Source: an uncultured Bacteroidales bacterium
GTDB taxonomy: Bacteria > Bacteroidota > Bacteroidia > Bacteroidales > JAAYJT01
DNA length: 64,000 nt
Assembly (NCBI GenBank): GCA_964349765.1
Contig: CAYGGZ010000001.1
Coordinates: forward strand, 313,282-377,281
Direction: 5' to 3'
Part shown: positions 3,950 to 64,000 of the stretch, piece by piece
Layout of the letters: every line of letters begins with the position of its first letter
Position numbering within the stretch: the first letter of the stretch is position 1
Notes under the pieces: model-generated
Told to the model about the DNA's origin: nothing
The model's input: only the letters and a program-made list of their open reading frames with translations
Database searches by the model: none
Program-made: the position numbers and the translations under genes

Positions 3950-4687
3950 TTACATCCCGGAGGACGAGTTCATATTTTCCTGCAATGATTCGAGCGCCTT
4001 ACTGGCTGCACATTGTTCGGCTCCCTTTATGCTGAAGTCCATTCCTTGGCCGGCGGGCATATTATCAATCAAAACCTCCACCACATACTGTTTTTTGTGA
4101 TGCGAGCCTAACTCTTCAACAACCTTGAAGGCAATAGTTTTCCTGGAATGTTGCCCCCACTCAAGTAATTTGCTTTTGAAATTGGTTTCCGAGGCAAGCA
4201 ATTCATCAATAAAGGTGTGCATGTGTAGTATCCGGTTAATAACAATTTTGGCAGTAAAGTCATACCCTTTGTCGAGAAACAAAGCTCCTACGAAAGCTTC
4301 GAAGGCATTACCCATCACCCAGCGTGGTTGCATGTTTCCTTCGCCGTTGCACTTAACGAGCTTGTCGAAACCAAGCTTTGATGAAAGCTTGTTTAGATGG
4401 CTGCGGCTTACAACATTTGATCGCATTTGAGTAAGTTCGCCTTCGTTTTTGAAGGGAAACCGTTTGAAGAGATAGTTGGCAATTATGCTACTAAGAACGG
4501 CATCGCCAAGAAATTCGAGCCGTTCGTTATTGAGTTTTAATCCGTTGAACTGTTTTTCGGCTACAGAGCGGTGGCGAAAGGCAAGTTTGTAAAGAAAAAT
4601 ATTGCCGGGACGAAACCCGAACATATTTTTTATGTTGAAGAAGAGTTTTTTTTCTGATGAAAACCATGCCCTGACGTACCAGATCAT
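3950..4687 (-). CDS. rnc: Ribonuclease III
   Basis: RNase III signature NERLEFLGDAVL and a C-terminal dsRNA-binding region (...KKQYVVEVLIDN...GAEQCAASKAL). It lies downstream of fabF. Confidence 0.9.
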   Translation of the reverse strand: MIWYVRAWFSSEKKLFFNIKNMFGFRPGNIFLYKLAFRHRSVAEKQFNGLKLNNERLEFLGDAVLSSIIANYLFKRFPFKNEGELTQMRSNVVSRSHLNKLSSKLGFDKLVKCNGEGNMQPRWVMGNAFEAFVGALFLDKGYDFTAKIVINRILHMHTFIDELLASETNFKSKLLEWGQHSRKTIAFKVVEELGSHHKKQYVVEVLIDNMPAGQGMDFSIKGAEQCAASKALESLQENMNSSSGM

Positions 4688-4700
4688 GCTCTAATAGCCG

Positions 4701-5954
4701 TTAGCCGGTGAATTTTTTGAAGATGATACTCACATTGTGGCCGCCAAACCCGAAAGTGTTGCTGAGTGCGTAGTTTACATTTCTTTTATGCGCCTGATTG
4801 AATGTAAAATTCAGATTGTTGTCAATTTCCGGATCGTCGGTAAAGTGATTTATTGTGGGAGGCACGATATTGGTGTACGCTGCCATAATTGCGGCAATTG
4901 CCTCAACAGCTCCTGCAGCTCCAAGCAGGTGGCCGGTCATTGATTTGGTGGCATTTATGTTAATCTTATAGGCGTGTTGGCCAAAAAGCCTCACTATGGC
5001 TTTTGTTTCAGATATATCGCCGAGTGGAGTGCTTGTACCGTGTGTGTTGATGTGGTCAATTTCGCTCAGATCAATTCCTGCCTCTTCAACGGCTAATTTC
5101 ATTGAGTTGTAGGCTCCCTCTCCTTCAGGATGCGGGGATGTAATGTGATATGCATCGGCGGATAAGCCGGCGCCAACAACTTCGGCGTATATTCGTGCGC
5201 CGCGTTTCAAGGCATGTTCAAGCTCTTCGAGAATGAGGCTTCCGGCGCCTTCGCCCATCACAAATCCATCGCGATCCTTGTCGAAAGGCCGTGAAGCTGT
5301 TTTGGGGTCATCGTTTCGGGTCGAAATAGCGTGCATGGCATTAAATCCGCCAACACCTGTGGGGCTGATACTTGCCTCACTGCCGCCGCATACAAAAGCG
5401 TCGGCCTTTCCGATTCTGATGTAATAAAAGGCATCACAAATTGAATTTGCCGAGCTTGCGCATGCCGATACGGTGGCAAAATTTGGCCCTTTGAATCCGT
5501 GGCGGATTGAAATGTGCCCGGCTGCGATGTCAGCAATCATTTTGGGAATGAAAAATGGATTGAAACGCGGTGTTCCATCTCCGCGATAGAACCCGGCCAT
5601 CTCTTCCGAAAAGGTGTCAATGCCGCCGATGCCACTCGACCAGATAACGCCAATTCTCAACGGATCAATATCCTGCGAAGTTATAGAAGCATCCTTTAGC
5701 GATTCATCGCTGGCCGCTATGCCATATTGAGCATACCGGTCGTATTTGCGTGCCTCTTTGCGGTCGATGTAGTTTAAAACATCGAACCCTCTGACTTCGC
5801 AGGCAAATCGTGTTTTGTGTTTTGAAGGATCAAAGCGCGTAATGGCATCAGCGCTGCTGACTCCGTTTATCAAGCCGCTCCAGTAATCCTGAAGGTTATT
5901 GCCTAACGGTGTCAGCGCGCCTAAACCCGTGATAACAACCCGCCGGTATTTCAT
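4701..5954 (-). CDS. fabF: Beta-ketoacyl-ACP synthase II
   Basis: Active-site Cys context TVSACASS, catalytic His contexts (AYHITSPHP, NTHGTSTPLGD), GHLLGAAG. It lies downstream of acpP. Confidence 0.95.
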   Translation of the reverse strand: MKYRRVVITGLGALTPLGNNLQDYWSGLINGVSSADAITRFDPSKHKTRFACEVRGFDVLNYIDRKEARKYDRYAQYGIAASDESLKDASITSQDIDPLRIGVIWSSGIGGIDTFSEEMAGFYRGDGTPRFNPFFIPKMIADIAAGHISIRHGFKGPNFATVSACASSANSICDAFYYIRIGKADAFVCGGSEASISPTGVGGFNAMHAISTRNDDPKTASRPFDKDRDGFVMGEGAGSLILEELEHALKRGARIYAEVVGAGLSADAYHITSPHPEGEGAYNSMKLAVEEAGIDLSEIDHINTHGTSTPLGDISETKAIVRLFGQHAYKININATKSMTGHLLGAAGAVEAIAAIMAAYTNIVPPTINHFTDDPEIDNNLNFTFNQAHKRNVNYALSNTFGFGGHNVSIIFKKFTG

Positions 5955-6355: not shown

Positions 6356-6424
6356 TTAAACCCGAATTAATCAATAGAAAGTCCGTTAGGGCTGAACTAA
6401 AGTCAAATGCTTAACCTGGTTTAA
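6356..6424. repeat. Rep1 family, minimal 69-bp copy (small palindromic intergenic element)
   Basis: Sequence is TTAAACCCGaattaatcaatagaaagtccgttagggctgaact..aaagtcaaatgcttaaCCTGGTTTAA. The termini are imperfect inverted repeats. The left arm is identical to 12251-12290 and, in reverse complement, nearly identical to 13771-13808. Confidence 0.85.
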
Positions 6425-12247: not shown

Positions 12248-12465
12248 TTTAACCCGAATTAATCAATAGAAAGTCCGTTAGGGCTGAACTATTGATTCCA
12301 TGAGGGTAACCCCGATTTAGTATTTGAGGGTAATCCCGAGCTAGTGTTTGTTCAGCTCAATTTTTATTGTGCTGATTACAAACGCTTATTCGGGATTTAG
12401 CACAATTCTTATTGTTCTGATTACAAACACTTAATCGTTTAAGCATTGTCAAATGCTAAATCTGG
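12248..12465 (+). repeat. Rep1 family, expanded copy with nested internal duplications
   Basis: It has the same left arm as 6356-6398, plus the 9-bp stem AATCAATAG/CTATTGATT. It also has two tandem units of tgagggtaaYcccga, two units of about 30 bp (tattgtKctgattacaaacRctta), and the right-arm core attgtcaaatgct. Confidence 0.85.
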
Positions 12466-13810: not shown

Positions 13811-13871
13811 TTGAGTTAAGCCCGATTTGTAAAAATGCTTCAACCTAGCACTGTGTGAATTTTATTAGGAT

Positions 13872-15545
13872 TTAATCCTGTCTTAATAATTTTCCGTTTG
13901 CAATACGTTCTCCGTTGAGCAGTACGTGATACAGATACATCCCTGCGGGCATGTTATTGCTGCGGATTATGAATGAGTCGGCCTGGCGAAGTAAGGTTGC
14001 ATGAATCTGTTTCCCGAGCAGGTCGTATATTCGAAGTTCAAGGTTATCTGTTTGTGTAGATGGCAGATTCGCTATACGCAATATTGCAGTTTCGCTGAAG
14101 GGATTTGGGTAAATATAAACCCGTGGTTCGTTTTCGGTTGTTAATTCCTGAACCGAGGTTAGAATGCAGATAATTTCTGCTGCTCCTCCGCTGCCGCTGA
14201 TTCCACCTGCACCGCTTGTTCCGCCGATGCCTACTGCGCCCCCTGTAATATTGGAAACGCCGCCCGAACCGCTGGTACCACCAGTCCCTTGATTGGCACA
14301 GGTATTGCCGCTGCCGTCTAATTTAACAATAAACATGTCGTAATCGCCTGCTCCGAAGGAAAGTGTAGCACCCGATATTGCAAAGCCGCCATCAGTAGTT
14401 TGCACAATGCCCAATCCCATATCATCTTCTAAACCACCTACTGTTCGAGTCCATTGAAGCGTGCCATTGGCGTCAAGTTTAACGATATAAAAGTCGTAAA
14501 AGCCTGCTCCGAACGATTCGGTATAGCCTGAAATTGCAATGCCACCATCAGTAGTTTGCACAATGCCAAATCCACTATCATGCCCTATACCACCTATTGT
14601 TCGAGACCATTGAAGCATTCCCCCGGCGTCTAATTTAACGATATAAGTGTCACCTCCACCTGCTCCGAAGGAATCTGTGGAACCAGCTATTGCAAAACCG
14701 CCATCTGAGGTCTGAATTATTGTGTAGGCATCTTCCCATTCTATTCCTCCTATGGTTCGGGTCCACAGCAAGGTTCCGTTGCTGTCTAACTTAACAACAT
14801 AAATGTCGGTTGCGCCTGCACCGAACGAGTATGTATAGCCAGTTATGGCAAACCCTCCATCAGTAGTTTGAATAATACTGGTTGCTTCATCCAACTCTGT
14901 GCCGCCAACAGTTCGTGTCCATTGAAGTATCCCTGCGGCGTCAAGTTTAACGATATAAAAGTCACCTCCACCTGCTCCGAACGAGTCGGTATAACCAGCT
15001 ACTGCATAGCCACCATCTGTAGTTTGAACTATACTGTATGCCCATTCATCCAATTCACCGCCTACGGTTCGGGTCCATTGCACAATTCCGTTGCTGTCTA
15101 ATTTAACCACATAAAAGTCGCCCCAGCCTGCTCCGAAGGAATCGGTATCTCCAGCAACGGCAAAGCCGCCATCGGTTGTTTGAATTATACTTGATGCCCA
15201 TTCAATATCTGTTCCACCAACTGTACGGCTCCATTCAATGACTCCACTACCGTCGGCTTTGACAATATAAAAGTCCTCGTATCCTGCTCCAAAAAAATCT
15301 GTAGCACCAGATATCGCATAACCTCCGCATGAAGTTTGAACAATGCTGAAACCAATATCCAATCCTGCCCCGCCTATAGCAGTTTGAAACTGGGATTGTG
15401 CAAACCCACCCGAGGCAGTCAAAAATCCGCTCAACAGGAGAAAAAGAAACCATCTAAGGTGACGAAGAAAGCGCATCCGGAACGCAGCCAACCTAACAGC
15501 GTGGCTGACTGGTTGTTGGAGAACAAAGAGTTTTGTGATTTTCAT
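13872..15545 (-). CDS. Secreted repeat protein (seven beta-propeller-like repeats of about 48 aa) with a T9SS C-terminal sorting domain
   Basis: The repeat unit is GGxxxDxxxSIIQTTDGGFAxxGxTDSFGAGxxDFYIVKLDxxGxxQWxRT, present seven times. A Gly/Ser-rich linker follows, then the C-terminus ...YIYPNPFSETAILRI...LRIYDLLGKQI...MPAGMYLYHVLLNGERIANGKLL, typical of type A Por sorting domains. An alternative ATG at 15476 gives a cleaner signal peptide (MRFLRHLRWFLFLLLSGFLTASG). Confidence 0.8.
   Translation of the reverse strand: MKITKLFVLQQPVSHAVRLAAFRMRFLRHLRWFLFLLLSGFLTASGGFAQSQFQTAIGGAGLDIGFSIVQTSCGGYAISGATDFFGAGYEDFYIVKADGSGVIEWSRTVGGTDIEWASSIIQTTDGGFAVAGDTDSFGAGWGDFYVVKLDSNGIVQWTRTVGGELDEWAYSIVQTTDGGYAVAGYTDSFGAGGGDFYIVKLDAAGILQWTRTVGGTELDEATSIIQTTDGGFAITGYTYSFGAGATDIYVVKLDSNGTLLWTRTIGGIEWEDAYTIIQTSDGGFAIAGSTDSFGAGGGDTYIVKLDAGGMLQWSRTIGGIGHDSGFGIVQTTDGGIAISGYTESFGAGFYDFYIVKLDANGTLQWTRTVGGLEDDMGLGIVQTTDGGFAISGATLSFGAGDYDMFIVKLDGSGNTCANQGTGGTSGSGGVSNITGGAVGIGGTSGAGGISGSGGAAEIICILTSVQELTTENEPRVYIYPNPFSETAILRIANLPSTQTDNLELRIYDLLGKQIHATLLRQADSFIIRSNNMPAGMYLYHVLLNGERIANGKLLRQD
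14360..15385 (-). repeat. In-frame tandem coding repeats (7 units of about 144 bp) inside the T9SS cargo gene
   Basis: The IVKLD/VVKLD/IVKAD landmarks recur seven times in the translation at regular spacing of about 48 aa. Coordinates are approximate. Confidence 0.75.
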
Positions 15546-58328: not shown

Positions 58329-58472
58329 CTGGCCTTACAGGCATTATTAAATACAGATTACGTGTCGGTAAAAAAGTGTTGATATTTGCGATACCATAAG
58401 CGTCAATACATTTATTCGCACCGAGATTGGGTCGGACATTAGGGTAGGCAATTGATTTAAAGCCAATCAGTT

Positions 58473-58901
58473 ATGACAAAAAACAAAACAATTGAAACCA
58501 CGGTTAATGTTCACGACTTTATTAATTCGTTTGCCGATACCGAGGAAAAACGAAACGATCGTTTTGAGCTCGTTAAACTAATGCAAGAGCTAACCGGTTA
58601 TGAGCCTAAAATGTGGGGGCCATCAATCATCGGATTTGGAAGGTACCACTATAAATCCGACAGAAGCCGGCAGGAAGGCGACTGGCCGTTGGTGGGCTTT
58701 TCGCCACGCAAAGCCGCCATTTCGCTTTACGTGTACACAGGCTGCAGCGAACACGAGCATCTGCTGAGTCACTTAGGAAAATTTAAAATGGGCAAAGCGT
58801 GCATCTATATTAAAAAGCTATCGGATATTAACCTGGAGGCACTCAAAAGGCTCATAAACGAAACAATATTGTTTTTGCAGGCCAAATACGGGAAAGTCTA
58901 A
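58473..58901 (+). CDS. DUF1801 (YdhG-like) domain protein
   Basis: 142 aa. VHDFINSF...EPKMWGPSIIGFGRYHYKSDRSRQEGDWPLVGFSPRKAAISLYV is typical of the family. Confidence 0.7.
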   Translation: MTKNKTIETTVNVHDFINSFADTEEKRNDRFELVKLMQELTGYEPKMWGPSIIGFGRYHYKSDRSRQEGDWPLVGFSPRKAAISLYVYTGCSEHEHLLSHLGKFKMGKACIYIKKLSDINLEALKRLINETILFLQAKYGKV

Positions 58902-58997
58902 TAGTATGTTACCCCGAACCTCACATTATCGTGAGCTGCCTGCAATTATTTGTTGATATCGCCTTGTTGCCGGATATGCTTATTAAATCACAGTTAT

Positions 58998-59273
58998 CCG
59001 ACTAATTTTACCTGCCCGACTTTGTCATTCAGGCGGGTTTCCATATTTTTACCTATGCTGTTTTTTTGTGTGGTAACAACAAACTTGCGTCATCGGTGTG
59101 AAACGTTCGGGATGGTAACCCCTTTTCTAAATTCTTCGTAATTTTGGTCGGACACTACTGAAAAAGAATGAAAATAACAAGCTACGCCAAAACCGAAACT
59201 ATATTGCATTACCTACCCGATTCTGGTTGATACACGCTATAAGGCGGGGTGGAGTAGGGGGGATAAACAAGTT
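58998..59273 (+). repeat. Cassette-junction element copy A (module 1 58998-59160 plus module 2 59161-59273)
   Basis: Collinear and near-identical with 61683-61959. Its first half matches 60187-60351 and its second half matches 63215-63330. Confidence 0.9.
59139..59146 (+). promoter_or_regulatory. Candidate Bacteroidota -7 promoter box (TAATTTTG) inside junction module 1. Equivalent boxes lie at 60330-60337 and 61825-61832.
   Basis: Exact match to the TAnnTTTG consensus known for Bacteroides promoters. No clean TTTG -33 box was found at canonical spacing. Confidence 0.35.
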
Positions 59274-59296
59274 ATAAGCGATTTAAATAACAACAT

Positions 59297-60085
59297 ATGA
59301 AAAAACTTTGGTTGACCTATGCATGGAAAGACAATGAAGATCAAGATTTAGACTTCATAGTACAAGAGCTCGACAAAAAGGACCTAGAAGTTAAATTTGA
59401 CAGAAGAAATTTAATTCCAGGTCAAAGACTTTGGGATCAAATTGGACAACAAATTACTGACCCAAATCAATGTGAGGCTTGGGGAATTTTATTGACATCT
59501 AATAGCCTTAATAGTGAACCTTGCATGGAAGAACTTGCATACGCTCTTGATAGAGCAATTGAGGCAAAAGGGACAACATTTCCAATGTTTGCCTTAATGA
59601 CTGATAGCATAACGTCCAAAGACCTCCCTCCGTCTTTAAAAGTAAGACTATGTATTCCCCTAACAAATAATGACTGGAGAAACCAAGTTGAAGCAGCATG
59701 TCATTTGCGACCATCTGGATTTACACCATCTGGACTTTCAGCATTTGTTATGACAGAGCACCTAACTCCAAATGGATTTTGCTTAGAAATGCGTCCTAGA
59801 TTTGACAGAATTGCTCCTGTTGCAATTGTTGTTGATTTGGATGAAAAGCTTTCAGGTAACGTATTTGATTCCAGTCTTGGGCCAGCGGGACGAATTCCGA
59901 CTGGTTTTGTTGCTCTTTCAAGAATTGATTCAGAAACAACTTTAACTGACGGTACCAAAGCTTGGGTTTGGGGAGCCGACAATGAAACAAATTCAACGTA
60001 TAGCTATTTTCTATTTTACAAAAGCCGACCTAAAAGAATATGGTTCGGACACCAACAAAACTTAGTATTAATAGACATGAGATAA
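59297..60085 (+). CDS. TIR/SEFIR (STIR) domain protein with a C-terminal domain of about 125 aa and unknown function
   Basis: The N-terminus reads KLWLTYAWKDNEDQD...FDRRNLIPGQRLWDQI...WGILLTSNSLNSEPCMEELAYAL. This follows the bacterial TIR pattern (FISYxxxD ... D...i.pG..w ... S..sl.S.wC..EL) with a candidate catalytic Glu at residues 78/79. Confidence 0.65.
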   Translation: MKKLWLTYAWKDNEDQDLDFIVQELDKKDLEVKFDRRNLIPGQRLWDQIGQQITDPNQCEAWGILLTSNSLNSEPCMEELAYALDRAIEAKGTTFPMFALMTDSITSKDLPPSLKVRLCIPLTNNDWRNQVEAACHLRPSGFTPSGLSAFVMTEHLTPNGFCLEMRPRFDRIAPVAIVVDLDEKLSGNVFDSSLGPAGRIPTGFVALSRIDSETTLTDGTKAWVWGADNETNSTYSYFLFYKSRPKRIWFGHQQNLVLIDMR

Positions 60086-60131
60086 ACCACTCATAACACT
60101 AAGTCGAATAGCCGAAAAGCCCTAAAAAAAG

Positions 60132-60164
60132 AGCCATTATACTGCTGAGGTGTAATGGCTTTTT
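60132..60164 (+). terminator. Intrinsic terminator after the TIR-like gene
   Basis: 8-bp stem AGCCATTA / TAATGGCT with a 13-nt loop, followed by TTTT. Confidence 0.65.
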
Positions 60165-60186
60165 GGTCTATTCGCTGTTCGGCTGG

Positions 60187-60351
60187 CCGACTAATTTTAC
60201 CTGCACGACTTTGTCATTCAGGCGGGTTTCCATATTTTTGCCCATGTTGTGTTTGTTGAGTAGTAATTACAAACTTGCAACATTGAGTTAAAACCTTCGG
60301 GATGGCAACCCCTTTTTCTAAATTATTTGTAATTTTGGTCGGATACTACTG
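60187..60351 (+). repeat. Cassette-junction element copy B (module 1 only)
   Basis: Aligns with 58998-59160 and 61683-61846. Homology stops at ...actactg, 10 nt before the stop codon of the converging toxin gene. Confidence 0.9.
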
Positions 60352-60360
60352 ATATTATAA

Positions 60361-60705
60361 CTATTTAAAATGTTCTGTTATTCTATTTCTATCTTCATTT
60401 TCCTTGTCATTCTTATGATACAATTCAATAAGTGAAATTTTTTGTTCATTAGGAAAATAGGCATAAATCAATCTTAATCCTGAGTTCACCCCTCTTCCTT
60501 TTAGTGCTTTACATGCAATCTTTTTAACTTTAATGATACACGTTTCCAAGCCCAAATTGTTTATGCGATAACTAAACGGTGGTCTTTCATCGGGTCGCTT
60601 TTTGAGAATGGCCTTCACTTCTGCCAAATCTTCATTTAGTGTACGATATCGTTTAAGCAGTATTTTCAAGTCTTTCTTAAATTCGACTAACTGATCAAAT
60701 TCCAT
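60361..60705 (-). CDS. Probable type II toxin, RelE/ParE-superfamily-like
   Basis: 114 aa, 3 nt downstream of the antitoxin gene. The C-terminal pattern ...GLRLIYAYFPNEQKISLIELYHKNDKEN resembles RelE/HigB/YafQ-type toxins. The assignment is by pattern only. Confidence 0.5.
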   Translation of the reverse strand: MEFDQLVEFKKDLKILLKRYRTLNEDLAEVKAILKKRPDERPPFSYRINNLGLETCIIKVKKIACKALKGRGVNSGLRLIYAYFPNEQKISLIELYHKNDKENEDRNRITEHFK

Positions 60706-60708
60706 TTT

Positions 60709-61527
60709 TTAAGCATTTTCATCCTCATCATATACTCTTACAGAGTATGGAAGTTCTCTGTAAAACGCTAATTCATAGCTAATTTCTTTGCCTTCATCGG
60801 TTATCTCCCAAGGCAAGTCTTTATGAGAATAATCGGTTATCATGGATGCACTCCAATCACTCATTTGTTCAATAACTCTGTCAATGACTTCTTTCTCACT
60901 TGCCCTTAGTTCAGTTAAATCAGCTTTCACTAAAGGCAGGTAGCGAGTTTGCGGATAACCGTGATAGACTGTTTTTACCCTTTGCAATTGCCCTTCATCC
61001 ATCATTTGATTTATAATGATATCTAATTTTTGCGGAACAGGTCCAAATGGTAATTTGCGATACTTAGCCCCCGTTAAATGCTCCTCATACAACTCATAGT
61101 AATTGAAATCAGAAAAATACAATAGTTTGTAAAGAACAGTTTCACCAACATTGGGCTTGCCTGAACAACGTTCCAGAATATACAACAAGACATTTTTAAA
61201 TTTATTGACTTGAAGCGTAGGCACAGAAATACGCACCTCCTCTTTCTTTGACTTCCTCTCCTCTTTGAGAGACCCTTCCTGACTTACGGAGAAATCTTCA
61301 GACATAAAATCGTCTAAAGAAAAACGTAAAACCTGTGACAACCTTTGAAGTTCAAGGATATCAACCCTTCTATTACCTAACTCAATTTGAGCCAATGACG
61401 GCCGGGAAATATTGACATTTTTAGCCAAATCTTGCTGAGACAGCCCTTTCATCTTACGAAATTCAGCTATCCTCCGACCAATTTGCTTTTGTGACAATCT
61501 TAGATTCATATCGATTTTGTGTTTCAT
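60709..61527 (-). CDS. XRE-family HTH plus Panacea (DUF4065/SocA-like) domain antitoxin
   Basis: N-terminal HTH QKQIGRRIAEFRKMKGLSQQDLAKNVNISRPSLAQIELGNR. C-terminal VLYKLLYFSDFNYYELYEEHLTGAKYRKLPFGPVP is typical of DUF4065. Confidence 0.75.
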   Translation of the reverse strand: MKHKIDMNLRLSQKQIGRRIAEFRKMKGLSQQDLAKNVNISRPSLAQIELGNRRVDILELQRLSQVLRFSLDDFMSEDFSVSQEGSLKEERKSKKEEVRISVPTLQVNKFKNVLLYILERCSGKPNVGETVLYKLLYFSDFNYYELYEEHLTGAKYRKLPFGPVPQKLDIIINQMMDEGQLQRVKTVYHGYPQTRYLPLVKADLTELRASEKEVIDRVIEQMSDWSASMITDYSHKDLPWEITDEGKEISYELAFYRELPYSVRVYDEDENA

Positions 61528-61622
61528 TGTTCAACGGCACAAAGATAAAAATGTTTTATTATAAACCAAGTGCTTGTTCTAAATACAAACACTGAATAAG
61601 TTTGACCTTTGAAAACCCAACC

Positions 61623-61645
61623 CATTTGCAAGCACATTTGCAAGC
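61623..61645 (-). promoter_or_regulatory. Tandem 11-mer (CATTTGCAAGC x2), candidate operator upstream of the antitoxin-toxin operon
   Basis: Two copies at 61623-61633 and 61635-61645, about 95-120 nt upstream of the antitoxin ATG. Each contains the palindrome TTGCAA. Confidence 0.3.
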
Positions 61646-61682
61646 CCACACGAGCCAACGCTCAAACCAAAAGTCCGGCTGT

Positions 61683-61959
61683 CCGACTAATTTTACCTGC
61701 CCGACTTGGTCATTCAGGCGGGTTTCTATATTTTTACCCCTGTTGTGCTTGTTGAGTAGTAATTACAAACTTGCAACATTGAGTTAAAACCTTCGGGATG
61801 GTAACCCCTTTTCTAAATTCTTCGTAATTTTGGTCAGACATTACTGAAAAAGAATGAAAATAACACGCTACGCCAAAACCGAAACTATATCGCATTACCT
61901 ACCCGATTCGGGTTGATACGCGCTATAAGGCGGGATGGAGTTGTGAGTATAAACAAGTT
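61683..61959 (+). repeat. Cassette-junction element copy C (module 1 61683-61846 plus module 2 61847-61959)
   Basis: Full-length copy, collinear with copy A with scattered substitutions. Confidence 0.9.
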
Positions 61960-62082
61960 ACTGAGAAGTGTTAAAGACCTTACTTCGGTTGACGATTTGG
62001 AGCTAAATCTTAAAAAATAGTCATGATTAATTCCTGACATTCAACCAAAAACGATAAATTTTGGAGCTTAAATTAAAGCTAA

Positions 62083-62919
62083 ATGAAATCAGACGAAATT
62101 AGAAATTTGTTTTCCCAATTTGAAGCTGCAGCCTCAGATTTAGAAGGTGTTGAGTGTTGGAGCGCAAGAGAATTACAAGAATTATTAGGATACAGCAAAT
62201 GGGAAAATTTTGAAAAGGTAATTCAAAAAGCTAAGGATGCATGCAGTAATGCAGGAGAATTAACTGAGAACCATTTTCCCGACATCAGGAAAATGGTCGA
62301 GATTGGCTCAAAGGCTGAAAGAGCCATAGATGACATTGCATTAACTCGTTACGCTTGTTATCTAATTGCTCAAAATGGCGATAGCAAAAAAGAAGAAATT
62401 GCGTTTGCTCAAAACTATTTTGCGGTACAAACTCGAAGAGCAGAATTAGTTGAACAAAGAATTTTAGAATATGAAAGGATAAAAGCTCGTGAAAAATTAA
62501 GCCAAACTGAGAAACAACTATCCGGTATTCTTTATGAGCGTGGGGTTGACAGCCAAGGATTTGCAATCATTAGGAGTAAAGGCGACCAAGCTTTATTCAG
62601 GTTAAATACCCAAATGTTAAAACGTAAAATGGGAGTTCCAGATAGTAGACCAGTTGCGGATTTTCTTCCTACTATCAGCATAAAAGCTAAAGACTTGGCA
62701 GCCGAAATGACAGGATTGAATGTACAAAGCAAAGACTTAAAAGGGCAAACAAAAATTGAAAAAGAACATATTGACAACAATCTTGCGGTTAGGAATATGT
62801 TAACACTGAGAGGCATTGTGCCGGAAAACTTGTCACCGGCAGAGGATGTTAAAAAACTACAACGGAAACTTGATGGAGAGGAGAAAAAATTATTGAAAGG
62901 AACTAAAAAGAAAAAATGA
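62083..62919 (+). CDS. dinD: DNA damage-inducible protein D (DinD) family protein
   Basis: Collinear with recalled E. coli DinD motifs: WSARELQELLGYS, VIQKAKDACSNAG, HFPDIRKMVEIGSKAERAIDDIALTRYACYLIAQNGD, NYFAVQTRRAEL. The length is similar (278 aa). Confidence 0.8.
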   Translation: MKSDEIRNLFSQFEAAASDLEGVECWSARELQELLGYSKWENFEKVIQKAKDACSNAGELTENHFPDIRKMVEIGSKAERAIDDIALTRYACYLIAQNGDSKKEEIAFAQNYFAVQTRRAELVEQRILEYERIKAREKLSQTEKQLSGILYERGVDSQGFAIIRSKGDQALFRLNTQMLKRKMGVPDSRPVADFLPTISIKAKDLAAEMTGLNVQSKDLKGQTKIEKEHIDNNLAVRNMLTLRGIVPENLSPAEDVKKLQRKLDGEEKKLLKGTKKKK

Positions 62920-63201
62920 CGAAAAGATTAAAAAACACCAGGCAGTAACACATGGGAGAATGCATGCTGGTTTCAGAGGTTTTCGAAGGTTCGTGGCTCG
63001 TAAAAATAGTTGGTATAAACTGATAGGAAATCGCCTCGTATTCTCGCAAGACACCCTGCCATCAACCCTTATAAGCAAGCGTAACAGACTGCATAACAAC
63101 CATTAAACTGACAGACAATTATCGAAACGACAGGATGACATATAGGCTTAAAACCGGGCTTTCCCGACACGACAGCCCAACGCTTCGTGTTTACTTTTTT
63201 G

Positions 63202-63330
63202 CCGACCCGTAATTTTTAAAAATAATGAAAATAACACGCTACTCCAAAACCGAAACTATATTGCATTACCTACGCGATTCTGGTTGATACACGCTATAAG
63301 GCGGGGTGGAGTAGGGGGTATAAACAAGTT
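63202..63330 (+). repeat. Cassette-junction element copy D (collapsed module 1 remnant plus module 2)
   Basis: CCGAC-c-CGTAATTTTT joins the two ends of module 1 directly. Module 2 follows (63215-63330), near-identical to copy A. Confidence 0.85.
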
Positions 63331-63408
63331 GGCGGTCATGCTGAAAAAAAGACACACACAGCGATTTAAATTATCCAAATTCATAAATTTGAAAACAAAA
63401 GCAAGATT

Positions 63409-64000
63409 TTGAAACCTACTAAGACAGATTTAAGTGCTTTAAATGATAAGCAAAGAGAAGCAGTAATCAGTGAAGATAAACGTATTTTAGTTTTAGCTGG
63501 TGCAGGTTCTGGCAAAACAAAAACACTTTTACAAAAGATTATTTATTTAATTGAAGAAAAAGGTGTAAGCCCTGCAAATATTCTTGCAATCACATTTTCA
63601 AAAAATGCTACCAATGAAATGATTGACCGCTTGATTATTTCTGCAGATACAACTGGGAAATATGAACGCATGTTGGTCGATAAAAGCCTAAGCAAACCAG
63701 ACAAAGAAAAGGAACGATATTATCAGCAAAAGAAATATAAATGGATTGATGGATTAACAGTAAGAACTTTTCATAGTTTTTGTTACAATGTGCTTCGTCA
63801 TTATGGAGTTAATGAGTTTGATAATAAATTTAAAATTATTGGTTACGAAAAAAGAGACGAAGAGAATAAGCGTTTAAAAAATGTTGCTCGTGAGACTGTT
63901 TTTGATGTATTCCATAATCTATTGAAAAAGCAATGTGAGGACACGGATTATTTACTTAAACTAAAGCGATACATTTTAGATTATATTATTGACAAGATTC
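63409..64000 (+). CDS. UvrD/Rep-like superfamily 1 helicase (N-terminal part, continues past the window)
   Basis: Manual translation from the TTG at 63409 gives LKPTKTDLSALNDKQREAVISEDKRILVLAGAGSGKTKTLLQKIIYLI...ILAITFSKNATNEM...VRTFHSFC, which covers motifs Q, I, Ia and Ic. It is not in the ORF track because no stop falls in the window. The start codon is uncertain. Confidence 0.8.
   Translation, partial: MKPTKTDLSALNDKQREAVISEDKRILVLAGAGSGKTKTLLQKIIYLIEEKGVSPANILAITFSKNATNEMIDRLIISADTTGKYERMLVDKSLSKPDKEKERYYQQKKYKWIDGLTVRTFHSFCYNVLRHYGVNEFDNKFKIIGYEKRDEENKRLKNVARETVFDVFHNLLKKQCEDTDYLLKLKRYILDYIIDKI

Follow-up and report, generated by a model that had tools for sequence, protein, structure and literature searches.

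The last part of a 64,000-nucleotide stretch of DNA from an uncultured Bacteroidales bacterium (contig CAYGGZ010000001.1; the whole stretch is called the window below) contains a TIR gene, a reverse-oriented toxin-antitoxin (TA) pair, a gene for a DinD homologue and a gene for a UvrD-like helicase, set between copies of a non-coding repeat, the junction element. Here we report that the TIR, DinD-like (PDC-S13) and UvrD genes lie on discrete cassettes, each of which starts directly after a G↓TT crossover (the arrow marks the crossover point throughout) and has, a few bases downstream of the stop codon, an inverse core that is complementary to the cassette's first bases. In the TIR and DinD-like cassettes at least, attC-type hairpin sites follow. 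The junction element is not the recombination hairpin and forms extra non-coding units among the attC-bounded cassettes. We consider it likely that the locus, which lies at the edge of the core chromosome in an uncultured, Lentimicrobiaceae-like member of the Bacteroidales, is a cassette array of the integron type in which no integrase is visible, i.e. a cluster of attC sites lacking an integrase (CALIN), interleaved with a reiterated promoter-leader unit.

A preliminary description of this DNA had proposed a new mode of cassette exchange. The integron features that are present, namely attC hairpins, core complementarity and attC sites of ~131 nt in related arrays, speak against this. Other parts of that description held: the repeat copies lie where it had placed them, its gene content was confirmed by domain matches, and its cassette array with breakpoints on the junction boundary is borne out by the comparisons given next.

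Cassette boundaries

The junction element occurs at four junctions (J1 to J4) and resolves into two modules, A (~165 nt, three copies) and B (112 nt, three copies). Hereby, J1 consists of A and B, J2 of A, J3 of a leader motif followed by A and B, and J4 of B with only short A-like scraps upstream (Table 1). From left to right the array reads A and B; the TIR cassette with its short attC; the unit at 60178-61957; the DinD-like cassette with a 132-nt attC whose R' box is probably dead; a 259-nt unit without open reading frame (ORF) that ends in B; the UvrD cassette with a weak attC; and filler, a leader with an A-like copy, and IS66-type sequence.

Cassette limits were read from homologues on other metagenome contigs (labelled L and a number), where L001 denotes ENA contig k141_457174, which carries the identical locus and stops 440 nt past the UvrD stop codon. 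Homology to the TIR cassettes of L120/L121, L122/L123 and L124 (77-88% nucleotide identity) opens at 59271 and closes at 60087-60098. For the UvrD cassettes of L028 and L029 (85% nucleotide identity) it opens at 63328 and closes ~25-35 nt past the stop codon; inspected by eye, the three copies (window, L028, L029) diverge just past ...GAACCGCCAACA. Positions 59271 and 63328 are the G of the GTT that closes B copy 1 and B copy 3, respectively. In five independent foreign contexts (TIR or UvrD) the homology thus starts at the G↓TT closing module B, and all three B copies break off in similarity exactly after ...ATAAACAAGTT. The foreign TIR and UvrD copies are without A or B throughout, with breaks at G↓TT and at the inverse core.

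In integron cassettes the crossover takes place between G and TT, and the R'' box is complementary to the cassette's own start. Here, the UvrD start GTTGGCGGT and the post-stop motif ACCGCCAAC are complementary at nine of nine positions, the DinD-like start GTTACTG and the post-stop CAGTAAC at seven of seven, and the TIR start GTTATAAG and the post-stop CTCATAAC of the window at seven of eight, while the TIR copies of L120 and L122 reach 10/10 and 7/7. Random words starting with GTT give a run of at least 7 with P = 0.012 and of at least 9 with P = 0.0008. This complementarity between start and post-stop motif is the core-site/inverse-core-site relation of integron cassettes. At the crossovers themselves, the TIR attC side up to the G reads ...TATTCGCTG and the TIR cassette starts from TT with TTATAAGCGATTT; the 3' end of B reads ...ATAAACAAG, and the A-side sequence is TTCGGCTGGCCGAC.

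These boundaries bear on the possibility that cassettes are swapped by homologous recombination between shared A+B promoter-leader flanks, independently of a recombinase. The A and B copies are 89-97% identical over 110-280 nt, which suffices for RecA-dependent exchange, copies of A alone or of B alone and the A-TA-A arrangement resemble products of unequal recombination, and an integrase is not visible. However, the foreign TIR and UvrD copies never come with A or B and break at integron core sites, attC hairpins lie inside the array, and A has zero probe matches in 185,579 GTDB species genomes, as have A, leader and B in IMG/VR. We regard this route of exchange as very improbable; homologous recombination probably reshuffles the repeats but does not define the cassettes.

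attC-type hairpin sites

A covariance model, R1, was built from 12 attC-like hairpins of 130-136 nt from L028, L029, L120 and L122. The 12 sites align with an invariant AAC...GTT and share a consensus R box, an unpaired spacer and a bulged L box, with compensatory changes in 16 of the 21 pairs; individual hairpins in the related contigs reach fold z-scores down to -4.7. In ~1 Mb of other loci R1 recovers 20 further sites at E <= 1e-4, and its strong hits (E <= 0.05) there all lie on the strand of the neighbouring genes. In an alignment of 32 sites 88.9% of the cells are paired, a value somewhat inflated by the fit of this alignment to R1, versus 58.8% after column shuffling and 27-38% in slid registers. 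In a family-level test the AAC/GTT pair is kept in 29-30 of the 30 scorable members, and 18 pairs of the 21-pair consensus show compensatory change.

Within the window, the DinD-like site matches R1 over its full length with an E-value of 4.7e-4 in 78 kb or 4.8e-5 in 8 kb. Its match opens at the very CAGTAAC that complementarity had already predicted independently, and it fits the model with several mismatched pairs. The site is probably inactive, because C63068 occupies the crossover position where G is expected. The site behind the TIR gene folds with -18.2 and -15.6 kcal/mol (z = -4.6 and -3.2) and was also found by a constrained AAC..GTT scan. This stretch had previously been taken for the TIR gene's own terminator and is here identified as an attC-like hairpin with R'' and R' cores. 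With 130-136 nt in the related arrays and 132 and 93 nt in the window, the sites fall within the ~55-141 nt expected of attC, and the two window sites, 2.8 kb apart and without intI, correspond to the CALIN definition of at least two attC within 4 kb.

The downstream attC bodies of copies of the same gene in different arrays belong to different families, and attCs within one array are alike in their 3' parts (in L028, 91 nt at 90%). The attC bodies are thus not co-inherited with the genes, for which divergence, within-array homogenisation or exchange at both cores may be the cause.

Related arrays on other contigs

Hairpins of the ~131-nt attC type flank genes for UvrD-like helicase, TIR, Fic, PIN and other defence-type or TA proteins on many contigs (Table 1), with close homologues of these genes annotated as Bacteroidota and no integrase seen on the contigs that bear the hairpin family. 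In L120 (1-2545) the TIR cassette known from the window is immediately preceded by four tandem ORF-less cassettes of ~298 nt, all of which have a canonical attC. Further along (4579-5596) a 291-aa cassette lies between 85%-identical attCs and is missing, by gene coordinates, in sister contigs with the same TIR protein. Arrays of this kind thus normally include non-coding units and undergo cassette turnover. An earlier count, by which only L028 and L029 among 80 UvrD homologues appeared as cassettes (regular expression GTTGGCG/CGCCAAC), was discarded as too narrow, R1 having found attC beside many of them.

Table 1. Coordinates of the array and its parts. Positions refer to the window unless a contig is named.
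Feature	Position	Strand	Remarks
Module A, copy 1	58998-59161	+	non-coding; 5' part E 9e-10; G↓TT 5 nt upstream at 58993
Promoter box, relaxed match	59021-59051	+	TTTG-N19-TATTTTTA; in A copy 1
Module B, copy 1	59162-59273	+	ends ...GATAAACAAG↓TT; G59271 is the last base ahead of the TIR cassette
TIR cassette	59272-60177	+	begins with the TT behind the crossover, ends at the G of the cassette's attC R'
TIR ORF	59297-60085	+	TIR_2 (Pfam)
TIR attC-like site	60091-60183	+	93 nt; R'' TCATAAC, imperfect hairpin, R' GTTCGGC; G60177↓T60178
Unit of A, TA pair (reverse), leader, A and B	60178-61957		between TIR attC and DinD-like cassette
Module A, copy 2	60187-60351	+	no B behind; begins 10 nt past the TIR attC crossover
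Promoter box, strict consensus	60210-60240	+	in A copy 2; directed into the toxin gene (- strand) from its 3' end
114-aa ORF, putative toxin partner	60361-60705	-	no family match
HTH_3 + SocA_Panacea antitoxin	60709-61527	-	
Promoter-like box of antitoxin	61540-61569	-	regular expression
Leader motif	61617-61682	+	~65 nt; upstream of A copy 3 in J3
Module A, copy 3	61683-61847	+	leader upstream, B downstream
Promoter box, relaxed match	61706-61736	+	in A copy 3
Module B, copy 2	61848-61959	+	G61957 is the last base ahead of the DinD-like cassette
DinD-like/PDC-S13 cassette	61958-63068	+	start GTTACTG complementary to CAGTAAC at 62943-62949
DinD-like ORF, Bro-N	62083-62919	+	full-length match to PADLOC candidate system PDC-S13, E 5e-115
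DinD-like attC	62943-63074	+	132 nt; R1 full length 1-131, 22.9 bits; R' CTTATAA
Non-coding filler	63070-63216	+	between DinD-like attC and B copy 3; A-like scraps only: 63152-63170 CCGGGCTTTCCCGAC, 63196-63216 ...GCCGACCCGTAATTTTT
Module B, copy 3	63217-63330	+	G63328 is the last base ahead of the UvrD cassette
UvrD cassette	63329-64000 (window end)	+	then inverse core ACCGCCAAC past the stop on L001
UvrD-family helicase ORF	from 63409, cut by window end at 64000; L001 11327-13504	+	
UvrD attC-like stretch	L001 13523-13651		129 nt; 8.4 bits, E 0.44 (R1, full length)
Further leader motif sites	L001 13749-13809; L048 8093-8148; L074 686-723; L100 17174-17213		
Contigs with ~131-nt hairpin family	L028, L029, L030, L037, L039, L040, L042, L047, L048, L064, L074, L080, L120, L122, L124		

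The junction element

A copies 2 and 3 share 94% identity over 140 nt; in copy 1, homology is clear only in the ~50 nt at its start and the ~45 nt at its end. A model of the leader plus the 5' part of A matches J3 at E 1e-29, J2 at 1e-10 and J1 at 9e-10. A hidden Markov model built from the three B copies recovers each of them at E ~1e-39 (nhmmer), with no further match in the window. Probes of 18 and 20 nt gave three matches each, versus 0.04 and 0.00 expected from shuffled sequence, and no A or B probe matched in the remaining 58 kb. B contains an internal direct repeat, AAATAACAAG / GATAAACAAG, and A bears imperfect 14-nt terminal inverted repeats, CCGACTAATTTTAC / GTAATTTTGGTCGG (11/14). 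Similarity between B and leader/A has no nhmmer support and is marginal by alignment (p = 0.012); A+B showed no similarity to the ORF-less unit of L120.

As the preliminary description had held, the junctions differ from attC. Folded as single-stranded DNA (ssDNA) or RNA, on either strand, A and B reach z-scores of -1.2 to +1.7 and are no better than shuffles, and R1 with its filters off finds no match in either module at E <= 10. Treated as one long attC or a structured RNA, the whole junction fares no better (ssDNA z = -0.2 to +0.9, RNA +1.3). Rfam 15 gives no match in the window at gathering score and none at E <= 1 in 58900-63450. Pairing of the 5' part of a junction with the 3' end of B was likewise rejected, with J1 and J3 at shuffle level, J4 borderline and no specificity of matched over mismatched combinations.

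These results weigh on the view that B is the degenerate attC of an ORF-less cassette made up of A, or filler, plus B. The four tandem ORF-less cassettes of L120 provide a parallel for such a unit, and the stretches 58994-59271 (278 nt) and 63070-63328 (259 nt) are of similar size. B moreover opens with AAATAAC and closes with GTT, and a weak stem CTAC(G/T)CC / GGAGTAG is possible. Against this stand the fold of B (z = -0.8 to +1.7), its being missed by R1, a spacer geometry that is wrong (3 nt vs 14 nt), and unit starts that are complementary to AAATAAC for 5 nt at most. We therefore treat a degenerate attC as a tentative possibility.

Alternatively, B with its upstream A could be a multi-copy, attI-like double-stranded docking site, so that each unit of promoter and attI caught one cassette. 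B is unstructured and 112 nt long, and its end GATAAA-CAA-G↓TT resembles the attI1 simple site CCCTAAA-ACAAA-G↓TTRRRY (GATAAACAAG↓TT recalling CCCTAAAACAAAG↓TT), in which we take ACAAA to be the spacer. The internal direct repeat, the three different cassettes adjoining B and the Pc-like promoter that A would give fit the same picture. The attI1 L and R boxes are those quoted in PMC12901181, according to which mobile integrons have functional internal attI and delta-attI copies. However, the likeness to attI1 spans roughly a dozen bases, and attI sites differ from one integron class to another. None of the B copies has an integrase gene beside it, and the marginal similarity of B to leader plus A would make B one more repeat paralogue. 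An attI-like nature of B thus appears unlikely, and we are more doubtful still about its extended form, in which reiterated units of promoter (A) and unstructured attI-like docking site (B), each with one captured cassette, replace the single attI at the array head. Combined with the breaks of the gene modules at either core and with junction bodies specific to each array, this would, if true, amount to a Bacteroidota integron variant in which most of the recombination site belongs to the platform instead of the cassette, and the platform also gives each cassette a promoter.

The junction element might finally be an ordinary miniature inverted-repeat transposable element (MITE) or insertion sequence (IS) relic that landed several times and has no role in the cassettes. 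A has terminal inverted repeats and occurs without B, and a leader plus A-like copy adjoins the C-terminus of an IS66-family transposase at the contig end, with GTAAGC ahead. However, the inverted repeats match at 11/14 only and are not accompanied by target-site duplications; all copies have a single orientation within 5 kb, with none in the other 58 kb of the window or, by the A probe, in GTDB species genomes; and no resemblance was seen between the distal part of A and the IS66 transposase 3' end. The placement is also non-random, A copy 2 beginning 10 nt past an attC crossover and B ending exactly on crossovers. Such an origin is accordingly highly improbable. Within the CALIN interpretation, B may thus be the degenerate attC of a cassette without ORF, a double-stranded site of the attI type or a mere leader.

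The promoter-like box reported earlier for the junctions is present, by motif, in A. Since Bacteroidetes promoters are different, a regular expression for the Bacteroidetes -33/-7 consensus was chosen over a sigma-70 promoter/terminator scanner; this consensus is that of Bacteroidetes housekeeping (Bacteroides sigma-A) promoters. Hereby, TTTG-N19-TAnnTTT(G/A) is found at the same position in all three A copies, and the strict form TTTG-N18-20-TAnnTTTG has its sole + strand match in 64 kb in A copy 2.

A leader-type motif of 40-60 nt, GCACATTTGCAA(A)GCCCCACAAGCCAACGCTCAAACCAAAG, also occurs in intergenic positions directly past stop codons in otherwise unrelated defence islands (Table 1). Left of J1, upstream of a DUF1801 gene, an inverted 21-nt piece of J4 is found at 58357-58377 (ATTACGTGTCGGTAAAAAAGT vs ACTTTTTTGCCGACCCGTAAT, 90%), and 58430-58441 matches the end of module A over 12 nt, GGTCGGACATTA. 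The array, or debris of it, may begin near 58330.

Genes, flanks and host

The TIR, PDC-S13-like and helicase cassettes are putative defence genes, as judged from their sequences. For the UvrD-family helicase, a protein with a zinc ribbon at its C-terminus, there are more than 7,700 homologues, of which the best 120 are all at least 79% identical and include metagenome-assembled genomes (MAGs) named Chitinophagales and Ferruginibacter, many of them on contigs of 2-6 kb. In L026/L027/L033 the UvrD homologue follows a 432-aa tyrosine recombinase beside a tRNA gene, which has the look of an integrative island; this island-type integrase and a distant relative in L082 are the only recombinases in the loci examined. 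The antitoxin likewise has thousands of relatives, with the best 119 non-identical ones 80-86% identical and including MAGs named Saprospiraceae, Flavobacteriales and Brumimicrobium. In L110-L119 the antitoxin homologues are followed by a 118-120 aa partner. Reading the contexts of these homologues as arrays was rejected, given that in one Flavobacteriales species they occupy a fixed chromosomal site beside a type I restriction gene.

Core chromosome makes up the remainder of the window, with gliding/type IX secretion system (T9SS) genes, dxr, fabF-acpP and mfd. The nearest genomes are uncultured Bacteroidales; the neighbouring ABC permease reaches <=63% identity, in a Lentimicrobiaceae MAG. 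Synteny via this permease was abandoned, as its relatives share the ABC gene pair alone and an empty site is not definable.

Extension past position 64000, which the preliminary description had suggested for finding more junction copies and a recombinase, yielded the former, a further leader and first part of A after UvrD on L001 (alignment score 98 vs 21 ± 3 for shuffles), and no recombinase before the contig end. This copy sits between the UvrD attC and an IS66-like fragment: at 13871-13942, on the minus strand and about 2 kb past the window end, L001 ends inside a gene whose C-terminal residues, ...IPDYPANKLVDLLPQNLKL, align with the end of the C-terminal domain of IS66 transposases (PF13817, E 0.01). 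The assembly likely stops because of this insertion sequence. GTAAGC at L001 13763 is a candidate start of an IS66 inverted repeat, GTAAGC being, we presume, the usual opening of such repeats.

Elsewhere in the window, six overlapping 300-nt matches, 156 nt apart and 67-72% identical, at 14271-15350 fall in a 557-aa reverse-strand ORF (13872-15545) and reflect a repeat-domain protein. Two intergenic regions at a distance of 5.9 kb share a 44-nt direct repeat with 98% identity (6356-6399 and 12248-12291), and two tandem 45-nt units lie near its second copy (12351-12437).

Discussion

Under the CALIN interpretation the cassettes would have been inserted by an IntI-type tyrosine recombinase working on folded attC strands. 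Since B ends on the crossover of three cassettes, it would have supplied the left-hand part of the target at each of these insertions, acting either as the 3' end of an ORF-less cassette or as a docking site. The box in A could read rightwards through B, as leader, into a promoterless cassette, i.e. into TIR after J1 and into the DinD-like gene after J3; from J2, transcription would enter the toxin gene in antisense. The repeat copies were probably multiplied within the array by duplication or homologous recombination, which would explain the A-only copy, the B copy with scraps and the A-TA-A arrangement. The array looks partly decayed, with one R' G changed to C, a TA unit without attC and an IS66-like fragment at the contig end.

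Several points weigh against this interpretation. One concerns the recombinase: as noted before for the array, none is visible, and we found no integrase across the 64-kb window or in 10 kb upstream and no tyrosine recombinase among the called genes of the array-type contigs examined. Unlike complete integrons, the locus thus shows no intI, and it shows no attI or Pc either. The attC assignments are of uneven quality. They use R1 and fold criteria, not IntegronFinder, and R1 is self-built, so that its E-values are rough; the TIR site gives no R1 match (R1 stands for the longer size class), the UvrD site scores just 8.4 bits, and the TA unit has no recognisable attC. Furthermore, homology between cassette copies does not reach beyond the inverse core, not even between L028 and L029 with their 95% identity, in departure from the textbook cassette of an ORF with its own attC. 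Module B sits at three crossovers yet lacks an attC fold, and the 5' parts of J1 and J3 have no complementarity to the 3' end of B beyond shuffles, with J4 borderline at ~2 sd below them. The promoter activity of module A is inferred from its motif. Finally, the gene order is identical in all assemblies carrying these proteins (exact-protein look-ups), so that no mobility is seen in the strain, and the downstream flank of the array lies beyond the contig end.

Two points make the locus of interest, namely the apparent breadth of the ~131-nt attC family on related contigs and an unstructured, promoter-bearing repeat placed exactly at three crossovers. If the repeat is a working site, it would show how distal cassettes of an array can each gain a promoter; otherwise the locus is a cassette array of the ordinary kind in partial decay. 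Isolate genomes of Bacteroidetes hold In0 elements plus one complete integron only. Given the ~131-nt attC-type family around defence and TA genes on many contigs, integron-style defence capture may therefore be commoner in Bacteroidota than genome surveys suggest.

Compared with known systems, IS66 ends and MITEs share with the junction element the A-like sequence abutting an IS66-type transposase C-terminus and the short terminal inverted repeats of A, but differ from it in that the window copies have no target duplications, a single orientation, an array-confined distribution and no second inverted end. Vibrio superintegrons contain ORF-less cassettes, some with promoters. The window resembles these in its 260-300 nt units without ORF, which lie between cassettes, are repeated in the array and have a promoter facing downstream, and differs in that its units end in B without an attC fold, whereas the L120 units have canonical attCs. 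The delta-attI cassettes and internal attI sites of class 1 and class 2 integrons (PMC12901181) are similar as non-hairpin sites that end at a G crossover inside an array and flank cassettes. Unlike the window repeat, whose likeness spans a dozen bases, delta-attI sites are recognisable truncations of known attI beside known intI.

The closest relatives are CALINs and sedentary chromosomal integrons (PMC4889954; 10.1101/2022.02.28.482270). They share with the locus co-oriented single-gene cassettes with a reverse TA unit; the G↓TT crossover with a post-stop inverse core complementary to the cassette start; and imperfect hairpins of 93-136 nt with invariant AAC/GTT, covarying L boxes and similarity of sites within an array. 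Unlike them, the locus has a Bacteroidales host, unstructured repeats of 112-277 nt between attC and the next cassette, and attC bodies that are not co-inherited. Integrons and CALINs are already known, as are Bacteroidota integrons, which are rare in isolates, and defence cassettes of chromosomal integrons (10.1101/2024.07.02.601686). In line with the defence cassettes of sedentary chromosomal integrons described there, the present array combines compact defence-type genes (TIR, PDC-S13, GajB-like helicase) with TA modules.

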